A stretch of DNA of 64,000 nucleotides from Planctomycetota bacterium (GTDB lineage Bacteria; Planctomycetota; PLA2; JAEUHO01), in assembly GCA_965222115.1 (NCBI GenBank), contig CBDCTJ010000001.1, positions 480,001 through 544,000 on the forward strand. The letters are read 5' to 3'. Below the pieces are notes generated by a model that worked only from the letters and a program-made list of their open reading frames with translations, did no database searches and was not told the origin of the DNA. This document shows, piece after piece, positions 2,122 through 53,976 of the stretch (the first letter of the stretch is position 1; the number at the start of each line of letters is the position of its first letter). The position numbers were made by a program, and so were the translations under genes.

Positions 2122-3951
2122 TCAACCATCAAAAAGTGTGGATTTTGCCCTGACACCGTATGGCGCTTGATTCCGTTCACCGGTTTGAACCCGCCAAAGC
2201 GCTTCATAGAGACCGCCCATCGCAATTAGCTCTTCGTGCGTGCCGGTTTCTTTGAGCCTGCCGCGGTCGAGAACGTAGATGCGGTCGGCGTTGCGGACGG
2301 TGCTCAAGCGATGGGCGATGACGATGGTGGTGCGACCAACAGCGACGCGGTCAAGCGAACGTTGAATGGCGGCTTCGGTTTCGTTGTCTACCGATGAGGT
2401 AGCTTCGTCGAGGATCAAAATGGGCGGGTCTTTGAGAATAGCGCGTGCAATCGAAAGGCGCTGGCGTTGGCCGCCCGAGAGCTTCTGTCCGCGCTCGCCC
2501 ACAATCGTGTCGAAGCCTTGCGGAAGTTCGTTGATGAATGCGGTGGATTCGGAGAGGTCGGCCGCGCGTTTGAGTTCCTCTTCGGAGGCGTCGAGGCGAC
2601 CGTAGGCGATGTTCTCGCGAACGGTGCCATGGAAGAGAAACACGTCTTGACTCACAAGGCCCATGGCTGCGCGCAAATCGCTCTTGCGCAGCGTACGCAC
2701 ATCGATTCCGTCAAGCGTTACGCGGCCCGACGTCGGGTCATAGAAACGGAGCAGAAGTTTGACGAGCGTCGTTTTGCCCGAGCCGGTGGGCCCAACCACC
2801 GCGATGGTTGCGCCCGCGGGCATGTCCATCGTCAGATCGCTAAGAATCGATTGTCCTTCGTTATAGCGAAACGTGACGTCGTCGAGTCGTAGCGCGCCAT
2901 CAACGTCTGCCTTGTTCATTTCGGACTTGCCGGGTTCGACCGTGGTCCTGCGATCCAACAAGTCGAGTACGCGCTCCGTGGACGCCATCGATCGTTGATA
3001 GAGATCAAACGTCTCACCCAAACGGGTCATGGGCCAAAGAAGCCGCTGCGTCAAGAACGCCAAGGTGCTAAACGTGGCGAGCTCCATGTGGCCGTGGATC
3101 GCCTGCCATCCGCCGTAAATCAATGTGGCGCCGAAACCCACGAGAATCGCCATACGAATCAACGGCGTAAACGCGCTACTCAAGCGAATCGCGCGGCGAT
3201 TGACTTCACGATATTGATTGCTAGCGGCGCGCAGGCGTTCCAACTCGTGGGGCTCGCGCGCAAAGGCCTTGATTGTGGCAACGCCTCCCAAGTTGTTGGC
3301 CAGCAGTGAGTTCACGGCCCCCACTTCTTCGCGCACATTCGCGTAGTGCGGCGCGATCTTCTTCTGAAACCAGAGGCTTCCCCATAGCACGAACGGAATC
3401 GGCAACATGGCCAACCACGCCACGCCGGGCGCCATGATGAAGAACACTGCCGTGATCACGGTCGTCGCTGTTGCCAACTGAATGAGCTCGTTGGCGCCCA
3501 CGTCGAGAAAGCGCTCCAGTTGATTGACGTCGTCGTTGAGGATCGACATCAGTGTTCCCGTGCTCTCGTCCTCAAAGAACGCCATGTCGAGATGCTGTAC
3601 ATTCTCGTAGGCGTCGATGCGTAACTCGTGCTGTACCGTTTGCGCGAGATTGCGCCAGAGCACCTTGCTCCAGTACTCAAAGAGCGACTCAAGAATCCAG
3701 GTAACGGCTGTTAGTGCGGCCAATACAAGAAACAGTCCCGTGGGCGACGTCAGGCCCAAGAAACTCAGTACACTGTCTTCGCGCCGGACCACAACGTCGA
3801 TCGCAACGCCAATCAGAAACGGCGGCGCGAGATCAAAGATCTTATTGAGAACCGAACAGAGCGTGGCCAGACGGATGGTCTTGCGATGCGAGTCGGCATA
3901 ACGCGCCAGTCGAATCAGCGGCGCGGACGATGCTCCGCTGTCTTGCGACAT
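2122..3951 (-). CDS. ABC exporter, fused TMD-NBD (ABCB/MsbA-like)
   Basis: 6-TM N-terminal half; Walker A GPTGSGKT, signature LSGGQRQ, Walker B ILILDEATS, H-loop IAHRLST; start moved to the ATG at 3951 next to the upstream stop. Confidence 0.93.
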   Translation of the reverse strand: MSQDSGASSAPLIRLARYADSHRKTIRLATLCSVLNKIFDLAPPFLIGVAIDVVVRREDSVLSFLGLTSPTGLFLVLAALTAVTWILESLFEYWSKVLWRNLAQTVQHELRIDAYENVQHLDMAFFEDESTGTLMSILNDDVNQLERFLDVGANELIQLATATTVITAVFFIMAPGVAWLAMLPIPFVLWGSLWFQKKIAPHYANVREEVGAVNSLLANNLGGVATIKAFAREPHELERLRAASNQYREVNRRAIRLSSAFTPLIRMAILVGFGATLIYGGWQAIHGHMELATFSTLAFLTQRLLWPMTRLGETFDLYQRSMASTERVLDLLDRRTTVEPGKSEMNKADVDGALRLDDVTFRYNEGQSILSDLTMDMPAGATIAVVGPTGSGKTTLVKLLLRFYDPTSGRVTLDGIDVRTLRKSDLRAAMGLVSQDVFLFHGTVRENIAYGRLDASEEELKRAADLSESTAFINELPQGFDTIVGERGQKLSGGQRQRLSIARAILKDPPILILDEATSSVDNETEAAIQRSLDRVAVGRTTIVIAHRLSTVRNADRIYVLDRGRLKETGTHEELIAMGGLYEALWRVQTGERNQAPYGVRAKSTLFDG

Positions 3952-3953
3952 GC

Positions 3954-4310
3954 TCACTCGCCTTTTACGAACCACGCACGCTGAATGCGACCGTCCAAGA
4001 CTTCGTAGGTTGCTACGGCGTGAACCACTTTGCCCGCCTCCATGCCGGTCACGCGCTCCTCGTCGATGGCGATGGGGCCGCAGATCACGCGCGACGTGAG
4101 CTCCACATGCAGATTGGGACACTGTTCAAACAGCCGACCGTAGGCTTCCCGCAAGGCATCGATGCCATCAACAAACACTTCGCCGGTGCGCAATCGAATC
4201 AACTTGACGTCGTCGGCGTAACACGCCGCAAAGTCGTTGATGTCGCCGCGGTTGTAGGCGTCGAGTTGTTTGGCGGCCAGACGCCGGGCTTCGCTTTCGG
4301 TGGCTTTCAC
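3954..4310 (-). CDS. SnoaL-like / NTF2 family protein
   Basis: 'QLDAYNRGDINDFAACYADDV...IDEERVTG...YEVLDGRIQRAW'; GTGA overlap with the LysR stop. Confidence 0.85.
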   Translation of the reverse strand: MKATESEARRLAAKQLDAYNRGDINDFAACYADDVKLIRLRTGEVFVDGIDALREAYGRLFEQCPNLHVELTSRVICGPIAIDEERVTGMEAGKVVHAVATYEVLDGRIQRAWFVKGE

Positions 4311-5251
4311 GACGCCTCTCCCGCGCCCGCAACGAGCTCGTCCCGAAACATACGTCCGGCGGGACTCACCAACTCTTCGGCGCGGGTCACAACATAGAAT
4401 GGACGCGCAATTTGTATGTCATCCACGTCGATGATGGCGAAGACACCGTGCTGCACGTCCTCACGCACCGACAAATGCGAGACCCACGAGAGGCCGAGTC
4501 CCGCACGAACCGCCGCTTTGGCAGCTTCTGTGCTACCTACGGTGCAAGATACGCGGCGCGGGAACGGCTGGGCCTTCACGTTGACGGCACCCAAGACAGC
4601 GGCTCGCGTTCCCGATCCACTTTCGCGCATGATGATCGGAAATCGCGAGACGTCGTTCAGCGATACCGACCCACAGCCGGCGAGAGCGTGATTGGCGGGT
4701 GCGATGAGGACCACCCGATCGCCGGCGATCTTGGTATGGGGAAGTCCTGCGTCCGCATCGTCCGATCCGACAACGCCTATGTCCACGGCGCCCGCGGACA
4801 CTGCCGATCGAATCGAATCGCTGTCACCGGTTTCCACATGCAAACCAACCTCAGGATGCCGCTCGTGAAAGTCGGCAAGGTGAAGTGGCAGGAGATAGAT
4901 TGCCGGGATCGACGAGGCTCCCACCGTCAAACGCCCCGTTAGCAGCCCGTTCAGTTGTGCCACGGCCATACGCGCGTTCTGTTCCGCGCGCAGCACGTCG
5001 CGCGCGTGTTGAATCAATACGTCGCCGGCCGCGGTCACGCGCACACCCGTTCGGTCTCGATCCACAAGGCGACTACCGAGTCGGCGCTCGAGATCGGCCA
5101 TGTGGCCACTGACGGTGGATTGGCTGAGGCCGAGGTGGCGCGCGGCACGGGTAAAGGAGCCCTGCTCCACGAGCGCGACAAAAACTTCGAGTTGGCGCAT
5201 CGACAATGGGTCGTCGCCCTGCGGCATCAGTCGGGGATCGTCGGCGTGCAT
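4307..5251 (-). CDS. LysR-family regulator (CysL-like / selenium metabolism-associated type)
   Basis: HTH 'RQLEVFVALVEQGSFTRAARHLGLSQSTVSGHMADLE'; substrate domain 'RESGSGTR' and 'GSTEAAKAAVRAGLG'; start uncertain. Confidence 0.9.
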   Translation of the reverse strand: MHADDPRLMPQGDDPLSMRQLEVFVALVEQGSFTRAARHLGLSQSTVSGHMADLERRLGSRLVDRDRTGVRVTAAGDVLIQHARDVLRAEQNARMAVAQLNGLLTGRLTVGASSIPAIYLLPLHLADFHERHPEVGLHVETGDSDSIRSAVSAGAVDIGVVGSDDADAGLPHTKIAGDRVVLIAPANHALAGCGSVSLNDVSRFPIIMRESGSGTRAAVLGAVNVKAQPFPRRVSCTVGSTEAAKAAVRAGLGLSWVSHLSVREDVQHGVFAIIDVDDIQIARPFYVVTRAEELVSPAGRMFRDELVAGAGEAS

Positions 5252-5364
5252 CGTTGCTCTCTCGAAAGGGAAGGGGTGGCGCACCAGGAAACCCGACGGG
5301 CGTGCAACACATTGCGCATCTGGTGCGTCTGAGCTATACATCTCGCGGGCTAGCCGATGACAAG

Positions 5365-5381
5365 TATCGGCAAAACCGATA
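5365..5381. promoter_or_regulatory. Probable LysR recognition site (T-N11-A palindrome)
   Basis: tatcgg-caaaa-ccgata inverted repeat between the divergent lysR and ABC importer; an overlapping palindrome ccgat-N7-atcgg lies at 5354-5370. Confidence 0.6.
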
Positions 5382-5410
5382 AAAAGTCAACCCAGCTTTG
5401 AGGATTCTCG

Positions 5411-6343
5411 ATGCGACAGACCCCCATTCGTTCCCGGTTTACCGGCCTTGCACTCCTGGCTGCCATATTCGTCTTCGCTGCGGGTTGCGGCAACGACAAA
5501 GGCGATCAGGGGGACAACGCGAAGAACAAGGGCGACGCGCCCGTATTCAAATTCAGCGCCATTCCATCCGAGAAGGACGCCACCGGCTACAAGGCCAAGT
5601 TCAAGGTTGTGGCCGACTACCTCACCAAAACGTTGGGCGTGCCCTTTGAGTATCACCACGCAACCACCTATAGCGCATCCGTCCGCGCCTTCGAACAGGG
5701 CGAAATTTTGCTCGCGTGGTTTGGCGGTCTTACAGGCGTGCAGGCGCGCCACCGCGTGCCGGGAGCGCGCGCAATCGCGCAGGGTGTTGAGGACCCCAAC
5801 TACTTTTCCTATTTCATTGCTAACAAGAGCACAGGCCTTGAGCCCACGGATACGTTTCCCGAGGGTATGAAGGGCATGTCGTTCACCTTCGGTGACCAAA
5901 ACTCAACGTCAGGGCGCTTGATGCCCGAGTACTTCATTCGCAAGTTCACCGGCGGAGCACCGAAGGACTACTTCAAGACAATCGCGTTTAGTGGCGGACA
6001 CAACACAACCGCCACGCAAGTCGCGAGCGGTCAAGTCCAGTGCGGCGCAATGAGCTACAAAACGTATGACAAGATGGTCAAGGCGGGTGAGATTGACCCC
6101 GATGTGTGCCGCTTGATCTGGAAGACCCCTCCCTACGCCGACTACAACTTCACGGCACACCCCAAGATCGACGAAATCTACGGGGCTGGCTTTACCGAGC
6201 GCCTCCAGAAAGCACTTCTGGACATGAAGGGCGACGATTTGCTTGAAAAGCCCTTCGGCCGCAGTGGCATGATCAAGGCAAAGAACTCCGACTTTAAGGC
6301 CATTGTGGATCAAGCAAAGGCGCTGAAGTTCCTCGGGGACTAG
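5411..6343 (+). CDS. PhnD-like ABC substrate-binding lipoprotein, putative selenate-binding clade
   Basis: Lipobox FAAGC; 'LAWFGGLTGVQAR', 'FTFGDQNSTSGRLMP' and 'IWKTPPYADYNFT'. Confidence 0.85.
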   Translation: MRQTPIRSRFTGLALLAAIFVFAAGCGNDKGDQGDNAKNKGDAPVFKFSAIPSEKDATGYKAKFKVVADYLTKTLGVPFEYHHATTYSASVRAFEQGEILLAWFGGLTGVQARHRVPGARAIAQGVEDPNYFSYFIANKSTGLEPTDTFPEGMKGMSFTFGDQNSTSGRLMPEYFIRKFTGGAPKDYFKTIAFSGGHNTTATQVASGQVQCGAMSYKTYDKMVKAGEIDPDVCRLIWKTPPYADYNFTAHPKIDEIYGAGFTERLQKALLDMKGDDLLEKPFGRSGMIKAKNSDFKAIVDQAKALKFLGD

Positions 6344-7177: not shown

Positions 7178-8064
7178 TGCAGGCATCGTCGCTGCCCCTC
7201 CCACGCAGGCCGCTTCCGATTTCTGCGCGCGGATTGGTGCTCGTGGGGCTCTTGCTAGCCGCTGTGTGGAGTTGGTGGACGCTTGGATTGAGCCCCAGCG
7301 ACTTCGTACCTCATGATGGTGGGCTGGAGATCACCAAGCGCTTCTTTGCGAGCGCCGTGTCGCCGGCCACAACGCACGAAGGTGTTGAGGTGATCGGACG
7401 ACCGGGCATCTTCGTAGAAGCGCTTGAGGCCATTGGCAAAACGATCCTCATCGCGGCTGCAGCGATGAGCATCGCAATACCGATGGGACTGTTATTTGGG
7501 TTGGCCGCGACCTCGGCATGGGTCAGTCCGACCGGTGTACGCCGCACGGGCCCGCTTGCCACCGTGATGCGCGCTTTGTTGCGTGTGATTTGGGCCGCCG
7601 CACGAGTTTGGATCGCATGCGTTCGCTCGATTCACGAGCTGTTCTGGGCCTTTCTCTTTATGGCCACCATCGGTCTCTCGGAGACGGCCGCCGTGCTGGC
7701 TCTTGCAATTCCTTACTCGGGCGTGCTCGGCAAAATCTACGCGGAAATGGTGGACGAAGCGCCCCGTGATGCAGCGGGGGCGCTCCGCGCTGCAGGCGCC
7801 AGTCATGTACAGACGTTCCTGTTCGGTCTCTTGCCGCAAGCACTGCCCGATATGATTGCCTATTCTGTGTATCGATTTGAGTGTGCGATCCGCTCTTCGG
7901 CCGTGCTGGGCTTCTTTGGTGTGGCCACGATTGGCTACTACATCCATCAGTCGTTTCAGAGCGGCTTCTATCGTGAGGTGTGGACCTATCTCTATCTCTT
8001 GATTGTGGTCATCGTGCTCTTTGATGCGTGGAGCGGCGCGGTGCGGAGGCGATTGACCTCATGA
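7177..8064 (+). CDS. PhnE/PtxC-like ABC permease 1
   Basis: 'RSIHELFWA', 'GVLGKIYAE', 'YRFECAIRSSAVLGFFG'; translationally coupled to the ATPase gene. Confidence 0.9.
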   Translation: MQASSLPLPRRPLPISARGLVLVGLLLAAVWSWWTLGLSPSDFVPHDGGLEITKRFFASAVSPATTHEGVEVIGRPGIFVEALEAIGKTILIAAAAMSIAIPMGLLFGLAATSAWVSPTGVRRTGPLATVMRALLRVIWAAARVWIACVRSIHELFWAFLFMATIGLSETAAVLALAIPYSGVLGKIYAEMVDEAPRDAAGALRAAGASHVQTFLFGLLPQALPDMIAYSVYRFECAIRSSAVLGFFGVATIGYYIHQSFQSGFYREVWTYLYLLIVVIVLFDAWSGAVRRRLTS

Positions 8065-8984
8065 CACGCTCCACCACGGAACTCGCGACCAACGAACACG
8101 CGATTGCAGAGCTGCGACGAACGCGACCCACATCGCGCCTTCTACGATGGAGTGTTGTAGGTATTGCGCTCCTCATGGTCGGTTCGTGGATTCCACTCGA
8201 CGTCTCGCTAGACGACCTATTTAGTGAACGACGTCAACAAGCCATTGCGCGCTTCTTTGAAGACATTCGGCCCGCGCCACTACGCGACACATCGTGGGAC
8301 TTCGGCGTGGCAAGCACGTGGTTTCATACCTGCATGAATGAGGGCGGTGGCTGGAAGGCCGCGGAAACCACGCTCGCCGTTTCCATATTGGCCATCGTGC
8401 TTGCCGCATTGATCGGTGCGTTGCTCGCGCTACCCGCCGCGCGCAATGTGATGGCCAAGCGACCCTTCGCAGCGGGCGGCACGGTCGGGATTACGTCGCC
8501 CATCGTCGCCTGCACGCGCTTCGTGTTGGTGTTGTTGCGTTGTTTACCCGAGTACCTGCTGGCGTTTTTGTTTATCGGCATGTTCGGTCTTTCGGCCGTG
8601 CCGGCGGTGCTCGCGCTCGCCATTCACAATGCGGGCATTTTGGGACGACTCAACGCTGAAGTCATCGAGAACCTGCCGTCGGCACCGCTGCGCTCGTTGC
8701 GCGCGGCAGGCGGTACACGTCGCGCCATCGCGGTTTCCGCCATCTATCCCCTGTCGTTGCCACGTGGCCTGCTCTACTTCTTTTACCGCTGGGAGACGTG
8801 CATTCGCGAATCGACCGTGCTCGGACTCCTCAGCATCGCCACCCTCGGCGCGTTGGTGGCCGACGCCGAGGCACGCATGCGCTTTGACCGTATGTTTCTA
8901 TTCGTAATGGTCGGTGCGGTGATGGTCGTCGTGGTGGACTTGCTATCTGCCGTTGTTCGTGCGTGGGTGCGGCAAGCACGCTGA
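8061..8984 (+). CDS. PhnE/PtxC-like ABC permease 2
   Basis: 'AIHNAGILGRLNAE' and 'YRWETCIRESTVLG'; ATGA overlap. Confidence 0.9.
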   Translation: MTRSTTELATNEHAIAELRRTRPTSRLLRWSVVGIALLMVGSWIPLDVSLDDLFSERRQQAIARFFEDIRPAPLRDTSWDFGVASTWFHTCMNEGGGWKAAETTLAVSILAIVLAALIGALLALPAARNVMAKRPFAAGGTVGITSPIVACTRFVLVLLRCLPEYLLAFLFIGMFGLSAVPAVLALAIHNAGILGRLNAEVIENLPSAPLRSLRAAGGTRRAIAVSAIYPLSLPRGLLYFFYRWETCIRESTVLGLLSIATLGALVADAEARMRFDRMFLFVMVGAVMVVVVDLLSAVVRAWVRQAR

Positions 8985-9092
8985 ATCGCCTTGACCCTCG
9001 CGAACGCGTGGCCGACATTCTCGCTCGCCGCGTAGCTTGTGTACTAAGCCATGTCGGTAGCGCGGGTGACGCTCTCGGCCCGGAGGTTGACC

Positions 9093-19814: not shown

Positions 19815-19988
19815 CTTTGCTGGACCGCTAGGTCTGAGGGTTCGCATCGTCGCGCTGCCTCAGCCTGGGAGTTCAGCACGGAATTCTGCTTTCGGCTCGG
19901 CGAAACACACTGGCGAAGGCGCCAGAAGTACACTCGCCGCGATGCCCTGAAAATCAGTTTACGAGTTCGAATCGTCATGGAGTTACGA

Positions 19989-20747
19989 ATGCGCAAGACG
20001 CTCAGCCTTGGCTTGGCAGCGGTACTCGCCCTGCCCGCCCTCATGTTTGCCTTCGGCCCCACTGCAAATGCAGGCGGTGGCTGCTGAGGCTTCTCCCCCG
20101 CCGCCAACGCCGTGTTGCGTTGCAAGTGGAAGAACGCCGAGAAAGTGGCCCCCGATACCGACGTTAGCACCGGCGACACCGCCGAAGAGGCCGAAGCGAA
20201 GGCCGAGAAGAAGATGGCGCCCAAGCCCATCATGGTCTACGTCACAGACGGCGCAGACAACGCTGAGCACACCAAGATCGAGAAGGTCGTTCTCATGAAC
20301 GAAGAGATCTCGATTCTCATGAATAACTTTGACTGCCTAAAGGTCAGCCCCGAAGTGGCTAAGGACGACCCGCTCTTGAAAGAGCACGGTAAGGCCTGCC
20401 CTCGCTTCATTATCTTCAACCGCGACTACAGCAAGCCCAAGGTCTTCGAAGGCAAGTCCATGAAGACCAAGAAGGTCTTGACCGCGCTCAAGAAGGCTGC
20501 CAAGCACGCCTACAAGACCCCCATCGACAAGTACGTCAAAGAGATCCGCAAGCTCGTCAACGAGTACAACAAGATCAATGGCGCGATGAAGGTCATTGAA
20601 GGCAAGCGGAGCCGCGGCGACCTCAGCAAGAAGGACAAGAAGAAGCTTGCCGAGCTTGAGCAGGCTCAGAAAGACGCTGAAGCCAAGGAAAAGAAATTCC
20701 TCACCTATGAGCTTCGCGTGAAGGAGAAGGCCAAAGCCGAAGGCTAA
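19989..20747 (+). CDS. Candidate secreted selenoprotein (Cys32-Sec33, GCUG motif) with a thioredoxin-like fold
   Basis: GGAG RBS; signal peptide ending ANA; GGC-GGT-GGC-TGC-TGA-GGC with the TGA at 20085-20087 in frame with ORF 20112..20747; SECIS-like hairpin follows; terminator after the TAA. Confidence 0.8.
20088..20134 (+). promoter_or_regulatory. Bacterial SECIS-like hairpin
   Basis: Stem caacgc (20105-10) / gcgttg (20117-22); loop CGUGUU begins 23 nt after the UGA; possible lower stem. Confidence 0.6.
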
Positions 20748-50293: not shown

Positions 50294-50749
50294 CTAGTCA
50301 CCCTTCGCATTGGCCAACTCGGCATCGACCCTCTTCAAGTACTTCTCAGGATTCTTCAAGAACAGCGTGTCGCAACCGGGACAACAGAATCCAATTCGAC
50401 GGTCCTTGTAGTCCACGAACACGGCGGGATCGACGGCGTTGCCCATGACCGGACACACGGCGTTCTCAGGCGCACCGCCGGACGCGGAAGCTGCCGATGG
50501 ATCATGGGTCGGCGATTCGTCAGGTGCGGGCGCAGGTGCAGGCGCGGGCGCAGGCGATGATGCCGGAGTCGATTCACCGCCTAACGATGAACCGGACGAA
50601 GGCTGAGGGCCTGGGTGTGCGTGGGCGGCACGCTCAGGCGTCGGCGTGCTCGGCAACTTCTTTTCGTGATCCAACTGAGCGGCCCGAATGAGAAACACCA
50701 CCAGTGCACCCACAATGAGACCCATAAGAAAGAGAGTCGATGTCTTCAC
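50294..50749 (-). CDS. Membrane-anchored YHS domain protein
   Basis: N-terminal TM, Pro/Ala linker, 'NAVCPVMG...IGFCCPGC...PEKY'; GAGG RBS. Confidence 0.85.
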   Translation of the reverse strand: MKTSTLFLMGLIVGALVVFLIRAAQLDHEKKLPSTPTPERAAHAHPGPQPSSGSSLGGESTPASSPAPAPAPAPAPDESPTHDPSAASASGGAPENAVCPVMGNAVDPAVFVDYKDRRIGFCCPGCDTLFLKNPEKYLKRVDAELANAKGD

Positions 50750-51006
50750 AATAGTTCCTCACCTTCGAATTCCAATCGACGTCGTTTGGCCAAACGGATA
50801 TGCGCAAGCACGCCGCGCGGTTAGCGCGGATTGGCTAGGAAGTGCGCCAGCACGTAGTCCACGTGCGGCGGTATGTCGCGCCGTTCGATCTGAAGTCCCG
50901 AGCCTCATGGAATCGAAGGCATCAAAACGGGCTATTCAGGTGCGGGGCGAGCGATGGATGCAGCGGAGTTGGGCTGCGGCGCTAGTCCAGCTCGTCCATG
51001 AGCGTG

Positions 51007-51468
51007 CTAAATCAGAAAGACAGTCAATCCCGGTGGTGCAATTCGCCAGGGTGGAAAAGCATCGCTCGTAACACGTCTGCGATTGGCTGACAGCTCAACG
51101 TTGCCAATCAGCGGCGAGGCTGTCGATAGAAAGGCGAGATCAAGATGCGCTAGACGCGCATCGCCGAACGAAACACACTCCGTCGCGTCGAACAGACTCG
51201 TTCGGGTACCTGGGCAGATCGTAGTGCTTGGCTCGTTCCCCGACGGGGAATCCTGGTTAACCGTTCAACAAGGCGCCTTCACGGCCCCGGCGGACCCGTT
51301 CGCAAGCGACGGCGTAGCAGCACCATGCGCCCAGTGTCCACAAGAACGAACGCAGTGTCCACAAGAACGAACATTCTCGGGCCCACACTGGCAGGGGCGG
51401 TACAGATCACCATGCGCGACATTGAGCATCGCAAGCGATAACAGGAGGCTGGAAATTGCGCGGATCAT
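51007..51468 (-). CDS. Cys/His-rich DUF2946/CruR-like leader protein with an in-frame Cys-TGA (candidate Sec68, or a nonsense mutation)
   Basis: Frame continues 85 sense codons past the TGA at 51265-51267 to ...FPPWRIAPPGLTVFLI-TAG; hydrophobic N-terminus; CQC, CGHC; hairpin follows the TGA. Confidence 0.6.
51236..51250 (-). promoter_or_regulatory. Bacterial SECIS-like hairpin
   Basis: UUCCCC-GUC-GGGGAA; loop begins 20 nt downstream of the UGA. Confidence 0.5.
51332..51372. repeat. 21-bp tandem duplication
   Basis: cagtgtccacaagaacgaac occurs twice with period 21; encodes VRSCGHC-VRSCGHW on the minus strand. Confidence 0.9.
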
Positions 51469-51575
51469 GAACCTACACACTATAGGCGAAGCGATGGGGA
51501 ACGCCAATCGGACGAACGACATCACGCCTTTGTGCCGTGGTTTCCCGAAGTTTTCGAAATATCGCCGTGAGCGAA

Positions 51576-52904
51576 CTAAAAGTCAACCACCACTGACACC
51601 CCAATGATGTCCACTGAGTTCTCCGTATGGCCGACGAGGCGACCTGCGGCAGGCGTGGTGCGATCGACGTCGCCGTCGTCGATGAAGAGATGGGCGTAGC
51701 TGGCGTTAATCTGAATATTGCGGGTGAGTTGATAGCCCACGCCGGCTGCGACCCAAAGGCGATCGTTACCGGGAATGCGAGGCGTGCGAGTTTCGTCGGG
51801 AATCGGCGACTCATCGTAGGCTACGCCAAAACGAAACGTCCAGCAGCGATTGGGCTGGTAAATCAACCCCGCGGAGTAGCGCATGGTGTCGTCCCAGTCG
51901 AGCGCAAGGGAGCTCACGGGCTCCGTGGGGTTCTCGAATTCGATATCGGCCGAGTCGAAACTACTCCAGCCGGTCCACGTAACGTCAGCCAAGAACGACC
52001 ACTTACGGTTGAGCTTGCGGAAGTAGCTCAGGGAAAGCGTGTCGGGCATCGTGATGTCTACGCTGGCATCGGTATCCACGAAACGCGCTCCGCCGATCGC
52101 ATTGGCGATTGCGTCCATGCCTGAAAAATCGGCTTCACCCTCAAGTTCATGCTCGATCTTTGAGCGGTAATGCAAACCGATGCGCGTGCAGCAATCCGGG
52201 TGAACCATGAGACCCACGTTCCACCCAAAGGACCAGTCGTCACCGGTCACGTCAACAAAGCCGTCGTTTTGTTGGGGTGTGAAACCAAGAGCGCCCCCCA
52301 GTTGTGTGGCGTCAATCAGTCCCCCGTCGATGGCGTTTTCAAGTGTGGCCTCCGCGTACTGCACATTGAAGCCAGCCCCGAAGGACCAGTGGCGATTGAG
52401 CTTCACCGCGAAGGCGGGGTTGATATTGATTGTGGTGAGTTCAGAGTTCGTCGCGTGATAACGGCCGATCCAATCCTCGCCCCAGTCACTGCGAAGTCCG
52501 AAAGGGGCGTTCACGCTGATTCCCAGACGAAATCGATCCCCCATCGGCACGACACCAAAGAGACTGGCTACAGGTACGGTCACGCCACCATCGCCGCCGT
52601 CGCCACCCAACAGCGGCGTACCAAGACTACTGATGGACCCCTCATCCTTGAACTTCCCTGAAGGAAAGATGACATGGCCCGAGCCAACCCATTGCCGTCG
52701 TTTCAGCACGGTCATACCCGCGGGGTTCCACCACACCGTACTGGCGTCTTGCGCGGCAGCCGCTTGACCGGCTTGCGCATTGCCAAGACCCGATCCCGTT
52801 TCGACAATGGCAACACCACTGGCAAAGGCCGTGGACCCATAGAGCAGCGCGAGCACAAACGCGAATAGCGATAGCGCTACGCCACCGCGAGTCGAGTGGT
52901 TCAT
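51576..52904 (-). CDS. FadL/OmpP1 outer membrane transporter
   Basis: 'DASTVWWNPAGM', 'APFGL', 'ININP', 'WTGWSSF', 'RTPRIP'; terminal Phe. Confidence 0.93.
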   Translation of the reverse strand: MNHSTRGGVALSLFAFVLALLYGSTAFASGVAIVETGSGLGNAQAGQAAAAQDASTVWWNPAGMTVLKRRQWVGSGHVIFPSGKFKDEGSISSLGTPLLGGDGGDGGVTVPVASLFGVVPMGDRFRLGISVNAPFGLRSDWGEDWIGRYHATNSELTTININPAFAVKLNRHWSFGAGFNVQYAEATLENAIDGGLIDATQLGGALGFTPQQNDGFVDVTGDDWSFGWNVGLMVHPDCCTRIGLHYRSKIEHELEGEADFSGMDAIANAIGGARFVDTDASVDITMPDTLSLSYFRKLNRKWSFLADVTWTGWSSFDSADIEFENPTEPVSSLALDWDDTMRYSAGLIYQPNRCWTFRFGVAYDESPIPDETRTPRIPGNDRLWVAAGVGYQLTRNIQINASYAHLFIDDGDVDRTTPAAGRLVGHTENSVDIIGVSVVVDF

Positions 52905-53976
52905 GATTGCCCCTCCCAGGCAGAAAAATGAACGCGCCAAGTGCATCTCCCACCATGCACTCGGGCGTTCGCGGCAATCGCACGTAGGATCCACGACGCG
53001 ACCGCCACTCGTAGGAATCGGAGACTTTCGACTGTTTACTCAAGCCGGACCGCCCCGACGCGCGCTTCAACTTGCAATTCTGGCCGGAATCGCACTTCCC
53101 GTACTCGTGTTGTTAGCGCCGATCCCCAAGAGTTCACGCTTCGTCGGCGCATTCACGAACGCCGGTCATCTGGTACTCGGGGCGCTGGTGACGTGGGCGT
53201 TCTACACGTTGTTTCGGCGGCGTCGCGTACGCCGACTTCCGGCGGCAATCGGGGCGTGGCTGCTTGGCTTTCTATTGCTTGGCGTCATGGAAGCGATTCA
53301 GGGGCTCGTCGGCCGCGGGCCGTCGTGGCATGACGTTGCGGCGAACGGACTGGGTTGCGCATTGACGCTCGTTTGGTTGCTGGGCATGAGGGGCAATGGC
53401 GCGCGCGCCAAAATGTGGACCGGATGCATGGCCGGCATGATTTTGCTCGCGGGACTTGCGCGGCCGATTCTTCACGGGATCGATGCATTGCGACAACAAC
53501 ATTCGTTTCCCCTGTTGGCATCCTTTGAGGATCCGCTTGAACTTTCGCGCTGGCGAACGACAGAGAATTGCGTCATTGCCCGCGATACACGGCATGTCAC
53601 GCGCGGCGCAAACGCCTTGCGCGTCGATCTCAGACCGGGTCCGTGGCCCGGAATCACATTCGCGTCACCGCCAAGAGACTTTCGGCGTGAGACATACAAT
53701 GCGCTTGTCTTTGACATTTTCGTGGACGGCAGCAAACCGCTATCATTGACCCTCAAAGCTGCCGACCTTGCGCACAACGAGTCTTACGAAGACGCGTTTC
53801 ACCGCACGAGCACACTCAATCCGGGAGCAAACACAGTTCGCATCACACTCGAAGACATGCGACGTGGCCCGAAGGCTCGCACGTTGAATCTAACGCGAAT
53901 GATGTCGATCCAGATGTTCGTCGAGTCACTCAATGAGCCACGCACGTTCTTTATGGATCATGTGCGGTTGGAGTAG
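52903..53976 (+). CDS. VanZ-like membrane protein with a C-terminal carbohydrate-binding-like domain
   Basis: 'NAGHL...EAIQGLVGRGPSWHDVAANGLG'; beta-rich C-terminus 'FFMDHVRLE'; start uncertain. Confidence 0.7.
   Translation: MIAPPRQKNERAKCISHHALGRSRQSHVGSTTRPPLVGIGDFRLFTQAGPPRRALQLAILAGIALPVLVLLAPIPKSSRFVGAFTNAGHLVLGALVTWAFYTLFRRRRVRRLPAAIGAWLLGFLLLGVMEAIQGLVGRGPSWHDVAANGLGCALTLVWLLGMRGNGARAKMWTGCMAGMILLAGLARPILHGIDALRQQHSFPLLASFEDPLELSRWRTTENCVIARDTRHVTRGANALRVDLRPGPWPGITFASPPRDFRRETYNALVFDIFVDGSKPLSLTLKAADLAHNESYEDAFHRTSTLNPGANTVRITLEDMRRGPKARTLNLTRMMSIQMFVESLNEPRTFFMDHVRLE

Follow-up and report, generated by a model that had tools for sequence, protein, structure and literature searches.

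A minus-strand gene at positions 51007..51468 of the Planctomycetota DNA analysed here (contig CBDCTJ010000001.1, positions 480,001 to 544,000; this whole stretch of 64,000 nucleotides (nt) is called the window below) appears to contain an in-frame UGA that is read as selenocysteine (Sec). The annotated open reading frame (ORF) of 67 codons would be the first part of a gene of 153 codons in which UGA-68 encodes Sec, a reading to which we assign a probability of roughly 0.7 from the comparison of homologous sequences, and the gene probably represents a new selenoprotein family. The encoded protein is a member of a rare and so far unnamed family of Cys-rich proteins, which are presumably exported, to judge from the N-terminus, and whose genes stand ahead of copper-efflux genes.

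The TGA site and the reading frame beyond it

On the minus strand, the frame starts at an ATG at 51468-51466, reads MIRAISS...AVKAPC up to the TGA at 51267-51265, and continues past it for another 85 codons, TVNQDSPSGNEPSTTICPG...DAFPPWRIAPPGLTVFLI, before ending at a TAG at 51009-51007; the read-through gene comprises 153 codons, the TGA counted, plus the TAG stop. A first-pass annotation of the same DNA had proposed that the frame remains open across this TGA to give 153 residues, and translation of the minus strand bears this out. Codon 67 (51268..51270) encodes an invariant Cys, the last residue of the annotated ORF, and codon 68 (51265..51267), the proposed Sec codon, aligns with the second Cys of a CC pair in the relatives.

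The family set was assembled by three profile searches of a 5.8-billion-protein collection and consists of 13 full-length proteins (137-153 residues), seven truncated proteins (53-57 residues) and one 57-residue C-terminal fragment. All members come from a handful of short contigs, and the family therefore appears to be rare. In an alignment of 21 sequences, the column of the TGA holds Cys in 12 of the 13 full-length relatives, and the Cys that precedes it is invariant in every sequence. All seven truncated relatives end in the column of Cys67 of the window protein, with ...[AP]PC as compared with ...KAPC in the window. The truncated forms and the window protein are mutually 45-91% identical in their N-terminal part and make up at least five lineages at <=60% identity; given this divergence, a stop at codon 68 appears to be common to diverged lineages. 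Same-site stops in diverged lineages beside Cys-containing relatives are, at the level of the aligned proteins, the classic signature of a Sec/Cys family, and they suggest that one branch of the family, the window copy included, has C-U in place of C-C. The first-pass annotation had read the site as a CC-to-CU variant and had reckoned with the chance that the relatives would all carry Cys there. This is not so, as seven of the 20 relatives that cover the site end at it, and the CC-to-CU reading gains from the Cys in 12 of 13 full-length relatives, from the invariant preceding Cys and from the conserved downstream frame described below.

At locus L001, a Planctomycetota contig from a metagenome-assembled genome that carries the Cys form P0016, the CC pair is encoded by TGC TGC. 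The seven public proteins of 53-57 residues are probably truncation artefacts of gene calling. P0025, the C-terminal-only ORF of 57 residues, starts shortly after the ICPG region of the family and ends ...PPWRVAPEGLTVFLI; it may be what a gene caller outputs behind an internal stop, a contig edge being another possible cause. A recoded genome with TGA as a sense codon was considered and excluded, as TGA terminates nine of the 23 reference ORFs in the window.

The region beyond the TGA was compared with the family in two ways. The read-through protein, with the TGA taken as Cys, was searched by HMMER against 1.84 billion representative proteins, and nine matches were obtained at E <= 1e-3. Six of these are full-length proteins of 138-152 residues that align from residue 1-6 to residue 152-153, across the TGA, and two are 53-residue proteins that cover the N-terminal part only; the top match, P0003 (1362 residues, repetitive), was aligned over residues 49-106 only, in nine stretches, and was dropped as low-complexity. 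In addition, N- and C-terminal profiles were built from 11 full-length relatives, the window being excluded, and were compared with every stop-to-stop segment of the window in the six frames (1710 segments). The C-terminal profile matches 51264-51010 at E = 8.7e-12 (42 bits; next-best segment, E = 0.36), and the N-terminal profile matches 51582-51268 at E = 1.7e-16 (next-best segment, E = 0.033). By this profile comparison, the homology of the 85-codon continuation to the C-terminal half of the family is far beyond chance, and the concern raised beforehand, that the post-TGA region might not be conserved as coding sequence, is not borne out. The codon score of the continuation, 0.02 per codon, is the best of the six frames and exceeds the 99th percentile of out-of-frame chunks. 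Two antisense ORFs, 51083-51607(+) and 50688-51071(+), have no credible Pfam match and were treated as spurious.

Family members share an order of elements consisting of a signal-like N-terminus, LLRPCxCG-x6-CGxC, the CC pair, a linker, ICPGPREP, a variable stretch, and PWRxxPEGLxVFLx at the end. In the window protein, residues 1-20 (51409..51468, minus strand, as are all parts of the gene) were read by eye as signal-peptide-like: residue 3 is basic, a hydrophobic helix is present, and the segment closes with A-H-G. This N-terminus can be aligned across every family member. Directly after the presumed cleavage site lies a CxC-x7-CGxC motif (residues 26-39, 51352..51393); in a 19-sequence alignment, C26 and C28 of this motif never vary and C36 hardly does. 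The linker that follows the CC pair is poorly conserved, acidic or proline-rich, and predicted to be disordered. The ICPG motif (residues 84-87, 51208..51219) and the C-terminal motif PWRIAPPGLTVFLI (residues 140-153, 51010..51051) are conserved in the alignment. The distance from the Trp of the latter to the C-terminus is exactly 12 residues in all 14 full-length members, and the distance from the ICPG Cys to this Trp is 52-56 residues in all 14 (56 in the window), the intervening sequence not being conserved; the distance from the CC pair to the Trp varies between 69 and 86 residues. In all, the window copy has eight Cys and the putative Sec. It also contains a tandem duplication with a 21-bp period (51332..51372; 20 of 21 bases identical), which preserves the frame (VRSCGHC / VRSCGHW) and supplies an extra Cys and an extra His. 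Neither the duplication nor a longer insertion that accompanies it occurs in any relative; being specific to the window copy, the duplication looks like a recent slippage event.

No family member has a Pfam match at E <= 0.01, and the read-through protein, the 67-residue ORF and five relatives have no match at E <= 0.1 in NCBIfam, including the NCBI selenoprotein models; curated selenoprotein hidden Markov models (HMMs) such as SaoC NF040734, MbdU NF045648, KCU-star NF033934 and the YHS-type NF041384 were unmatched. As far as can be judged from the names and HMM identifiers in Table 1 of PMC13188914, within the available text of that study, the family lies outside the 119 selenoprotein families and subfamilies recorded there. 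The relative P0009 falls in unnamed clusters of the Protein Atlas that are commonest in Planctomycetota and Acidobacteriota, and a language model connects it weakly (score 0.93) with a cluster, 23% of whose members have DUF2946; this is the only link to DUF2946 that emerged. In an AlphaFold2 model based on the 19-sequence alignment, the mean predicted local distance difference test score (pLDDT) is 55 and the predicted template modelling score is 0.30, and helix 2-19 is the only confident part (block pLDDT 93/85); on this model, the mature chain would probably be disordered without metal.

The downstream hairpin and alternative explanations

A stem-loop that resembles a bacterial selenocysteine insertion sequence (SECIS) spans 51230..51262 on the minus strand, past the TGA. 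Its 6-bp upper stem (51250-51245 paired with 51241-51236) closes a 3-nt loop, GUC (51244-51242), with G as the first loop base and 20 nt from the TGA to the loop, and is extended by a 4-bp lower stem (51262-51259 paired with 51233-51230). The calculated energy is -7.3 kcal/mol for the upper stem alone and -9.6 kcal/mol with the lower stem. The first-pass annotation had pointed out a TTCCCC-GTC-GGGGAA hairpin with its loop 20 nt after the TGA, and this was recovered at 51250-51236. The bacterial SECIS model, as set out in the available text of PMC13188914, has a loop of 3-9 nt, an upper stem of 4-16 bp, a G at loop position 1 or 2, a distance of 16-37 nt between the UGA and the loop and a minimum free energy (MFE) of <= -7.5 kcal/mol. 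With its lower stem, the hairpin agrees with this weakly specific model, and it would act as the SECIS recognized by SelB.

Several observations weigh against the incorporation of Sec at this site. The upper stem alone just misses the energy limit of the SECIS model, an equally stable hairpin follows 115 of the 1948 TGA triplets of the window (5.9%) under the same positional rules, and the 76-nt context has z = +0.67, with 153 of 200 shuffles folding at least as well. By itself, the hairpin is not beyond chance and is weak evidence, coming from a single DNA sequence. The post-TGA codon score lies just under the 5th percentile (0.035) of genuine 85-codon chunks, and the part before the TGA scores -0.12; these low scores fit the odd Cys-rich composition and also some relaxed constraint. 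The C-terminal half of the window protein is the most divergent in the family, with ICPGTRTS as compared with the consensus ICPGPREP and PPGL as compared with PEGL. Among the full-length relatives, P0011 has Val at the position aligned to the TGA, and the truncated relatives, which were covered as protein sequences, may end at a codon other than TGA. Furthermore, ARAGORN detected no tRNA within the 64-kb window, Rfam at gathering thresholds gave no match across the whole window, and no SelA, SelB or SelD domain was found among the 50 ORFs scanned in it.

Some of these points would also suit a plainer explanation, in which TGC or TGT was changed to TGA, a single-base step, in a Cys-form gene, or in which the short product is functional, the 85 codons being an undecayed remnant and the hairpin incidental. 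The background rate of such hairpins is in line with it, as are the divergence and low codon score of the post-TGA half; moreover, the fresh 21-bp duplication shows that the window gene is changing, the organism may lack Sec machinery, and the 53-57-residue relatives could in principle represent a genuine short form. We nevertheless consider a nonsense or short-form gene unlikely. Seven more proteins with 45-91% identity stop at the same residue, where independent nonsense mutations are implausible, and if the stop was inherited it has long been kept, so the downstream frame of the window should have decayed; instead, the frame is open for 85 codons, matches the C-terminal profile and has its Trp placed exactly 12 residues ahead of the stop. 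Leaky read-through of UGA is known in bacteria, and low-level bypass of the codon by near-cognate Trp or Cys, without Sec, would yield a mixture of 67- and 153-residue products that might itself serve as a regulatory device. The conservation of the frame on both sides of the UGA and the lack of Sec machinery among the features seen in the window are compatible with such bypass, but the codon replaces a conserved metal-ligand Cys of a CC pair in the classic Sec/Cys pattern, a SECIS-compatible hairpin lies at the right distance, and CU motifs are recurrent in metal-linked selenoproteins (PMC13188914, available text), which together make bypass without Sec quite improbable.

Least credible of all is that the hairpin serves as a transcription terminator or attenuator that ends a 67-codon leader transcript and renders the downstream similarity irrelevant. 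The location of this GC-rich 6-bp hairpin, near the start of an operon and 14 nt past a stop codon, would suit such a function. However, homology clearly marks the frame beyond it as coding, the hairpin has no U-tract behind it, and a terminator scan of 50500-51800 did not report it; on the last two grounds, the hairpin at 51250-51236 was rejected as an intrinsic terminator. Selenocysteine at UGA-68 is the reading that we retain.

When the window was scanned for TGAs that lie in frame between coding-like stretches, a second C-UGA came to light. This TGA (20085-20087) lies in a candidate selenoprotein gene at 19977-20747 (+), the start of which is at 19977 or 19989, and it is preceded by a signal peptide, MELRMRKTLSLGLAAVLALPALMFAFGPTANAGGGC, and followed by GFSPAAN... 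leading into a 211-residue ORF (20112-20747), the junction reading ...NAGGGC-U-GFSP... with a well-scoring coding region downstream. The hairpin after this TGA has an energy of -20.4 kcal/mol and z = -2.28, seven of 200 shuffles being as good, and in the Atlas the ORF 20112-20747 falls in unnamed Planctomycetota clusters with weak thioredoxin-like leads. Judged from its sequence, this second site may be an indirect pointer to a Sec trait.

The copper-efflux operon

Upstream of the family gene lies a gene for a FadL-type porin (51576-52994), and a terminator-like hairpin with a T-run at 51578-51609 (-) overlaps the last codons of this gene and separates it from a promoter-like site of the family gene. 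The latter, a sigma-70-like TTGGCG-17-TATAGT at 51479..51507 (-), was recognized by consensus only (9 of 12 positions) and ends 10 nt ahead of the ATG. Because of the porin terminator, the promoter match and the efflux genes that follow on the same strand, the family gene looks like a first cistron. Downstream, all on the minus strand, are a gene for a YHS-like protein of 151 residues (50294..50749), in which a Pro/Ala/His-rich linker joins a hydrophobic N-terminus to a YHS-like C-terminus (YHS match at E = 2.9e-5, which does not reach the Pfam cut-off); a CusB-like adaptor gene (50291-48930; HlyD_D23 at 5e-65, plus HMBD and the CusB hairpin domain); a gene for a CusA-like pump of the resistance-nodulation-division (RND) type, which is long at 1187 residues (48927-45364; ACR_tran at 1e-205); a gene for a triple YHS/TRASH protein of 256 residues (45361-44591; YHS at 1e-22); and two outer-membrane-factor genes (44560-43118 and 43241-41619; OEP at 1e-35 and 2.5e-15). 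Most of the downstream operon genes overlap or abut. The listed ORFs of the two OEP genes overlap by 124 nt, and one of the starts is therefore probably located further downstream. The domain matches agree with the earlier placement of the gene upstream of a copper-efflux operon, in that it heads an RND efflux operon of the Cu/Ag type. No metal-sensing transcription factor was found adjoining the operon among the ORFs scanned.

The family gene and the YHS-like gene are separated by an intergenic region of 257 nt (50750..51006), within which the promoter scan gave no minus-strand match. The predicted MFE fold contains an 11-bp pairing, interrupted by one bulge, between 50919-50909, a segment from the central part of this region, and 50773-50762, which overlaps the Shine-Dalgarno sequence of the YHS-like gene in its 5' part. 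By analogy with the stem-loop between cutF and cutO, this pairing could be of the anti-Shine-Dalgarno kind. A point against a regulatory role of the family gene is that the fold of 50735-51030 is not significant (z = -0.95). A near-perfect 18-bp palindrome at 50772-50789, with overlapping 12-nt arms that are 92% complementary, lies beside a TTTGGCCAAA palindrome, approximately 25-40 nt upstream of the start of the YHS-like gene, and might serve either as the operator of a dimeric regulator or as a hairpin in the RNA.

A scan of genome contigs with a 7-sequence family alignment led to a single locus, L001, where the family protein is 27% identical to that of the window. At a distance of 155 nt past P0016, L001 has a gene 50% identical (E = 3e-35) to the YHS-like gene of the window, and genes for a multicopper oxidase and OEP adjoin on the other strand; taken together, these L001 genes fall at 3112-6014 (-) and 8001-9013 (+). 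On these matches, the pairing with the YHS-like gene and the copper context is conserved between the window and L001. A CCUCCUG...CAGGAGG hairpin is present at L001 within approximately 30 nt after the stop of the family gene. A scan of the genome contigs with the 151-residue YHS-like neighbour gave 596 pattern stretches, among which no relative was confirmed.

Relation to known systems and proposed function

The gene had initially been assigned to the DUF2946/CruR type of small leader proteins. This assignment does not hold as membership, since the DUF2946 model PF11162 was unmatched in 12 of 12 members at E <= 10 and the C-terminus is not a RAPP or proline run; the missing match also counts against a regulatory role. 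Judged by these comparisons, the label is wrong for the family and apt as an analogy. In the available text of PMC9426467, CruR is described as having a CXXC, 45 residues, and RAPP three residues before the end, and the nascent CruR chain, by sensing copper, governs Rho-dependent termination within an intergenic region of 162 bp. According to the available text of PMC9973294 and of a 2025 preprint, CutF has a signal peptide of the Sec export pathway, a CxxxC and a proline-rich C-terminus, and its copper-dependent stalling during export melts a stem-loop over the ribosome-binding site of the next gene; PMC9973294 also places the gene for CzcI upstream of czcCBA. Like CutF, CruR and CzcI, as far as these texts describe them, the present family has a length of about 145 residues, predicted export, Cys residues that form a motif after the signal sequence, and a strongly conserved C-terminal motif whose distance from the stop does not vary. 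The spacing from a Cys motif to the C-terminal motif is kept in an analogous way (PMC9426467), although with another motif and another distance, and the family gene is the first of a copper-homeostasis or RND-efflux operon. A long intergenic region after the gene is likewise shared, being 162 bp for cruR, 257 nt in the window and 155 nt at L001.

On the other hand, compared with the DUF2946 proteins of the same texts, the family ends in PWRxxPEGLxVFLx, with the Trp 12 residues from the end, and not in RAPP or a proline run; its distance from the ICPG Cys to the Trp is 52-56 residues as opposed to approximately 45 in CXXC-45-RAPP; and its Cys residues make up several clusters, where the DUF2946 proteins have just one CxxC or CxxxC. 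Furthermore, it appears to have a Sec-form branch, and none is reported for DUF2946 in the literature searched. That search covered full-text literature, with subscription-only papers and supplements outside its scope. Within it, nothing relevant by title or abstract was found among the matches listed for selenocysteine with DUF2946, CutF, CruR or CzcI, no paper was found that combines a selenoprotein with RND, copper efflux and UGA, and nothing relevant by title or abstract was found for selenoprotein, copper and Planctomycetes.

Two other groups of proteins invite comparison. We know of no sequence relation between the family and the arrest peptides SecM, VemP and MifM. The resemblance to these lies in an exported nascent chain, a conserved C-terminal segment that keeps a constant distance from the ORF end, and a location upstream of the regulated gene (PMC9973294, available text); they differ in that the signal in the window protein would be metal instead of export activity, and arrest is hypothetical here. 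As to the selenoproteins SaoC, MbdU, SaoL, HgcA, CopZ-like form 2 and KCU-star, the available text of PMC13188914 describes Sec directly after Cys, a link to heavy metals and the existence of Cys-form homologs, all of which apply to the window protein as read here, and CU motifs are noted there as recurrent in metal-linked selenoproteins, with Sec proposed as a metal ligand. Unlike these proteins, that of the window combines a putative signal peptide with a long, probably disordered chain and with a C-terminal motif that may act as a ruler, and its gene stands at the head of an RND copper-efflux operon.

Since the protein is Cys-rich, has an export-like N-terminus and is tied to efflux of the Cu(I)/Ag(I) type, copper binding is the natural reading of its function. 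The exported chain, rich in thiolates and with a selenolate, would bind copper, and Sec would provide a softer and more nucleophilic ligand, as proposed for other metal-linked selenoproteins with CU motifs. By analogy with CutF and CruR, we tentatively suggest that the gene product is a cis-acting sensor, in which the nascent exported chain would sense periplasmic copper and alter downstream expression. It may instead be a free periplasmic copper-binding protein, a role that we consider about equally probable. The cis-acting role is proposed because the distance from the Trp to the stop is fixed, the spacing from ICPG to the Trp is kept across a non-conserved linker, and no metal-sensing transcription factor adjoins the operon among the ORFs scanned. 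In a more specific form of the cis-acting role, the product would be a Sec-containing, copper-sensing nascent-chain regulator that makes the expression of the YHS-like, CusB-like and CusA-like proteins dependent on both selenium and copper. The ribosome would have to recode UGA-68 with SelB and Sec-tRNA before it reaches the PWR...VFL ruler motif, and the exported CxC, CU and ICPG ligands would then report periplasmic copper to the ribosome. This combination is doubtful as a whole, being argued from analogy; if true, it would be the first Sec-containing regulatory leader peptide and the first use of Sec recoding as an operon checkpoint.

In practical terms, genes of this kind are split or truncated by gene callers. 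If the selenocysteine is confirmed, the 119 prokaryotic families of the 2026 inventory would be joined by a further selenoprotein family, one that Pfam and NCBIfam also lack, and selenocysteine would be known from an exported protein linked to copper and encoded by the first gene of an RND efflux operon. Confirmation would also extend the logic of the first-cistron metal sensor, represented by CutF, CruR and CzcI, to an unrelated Planctomycetota-like family, and would offer a direct way to test whether selenium status feeds into copper resistance.

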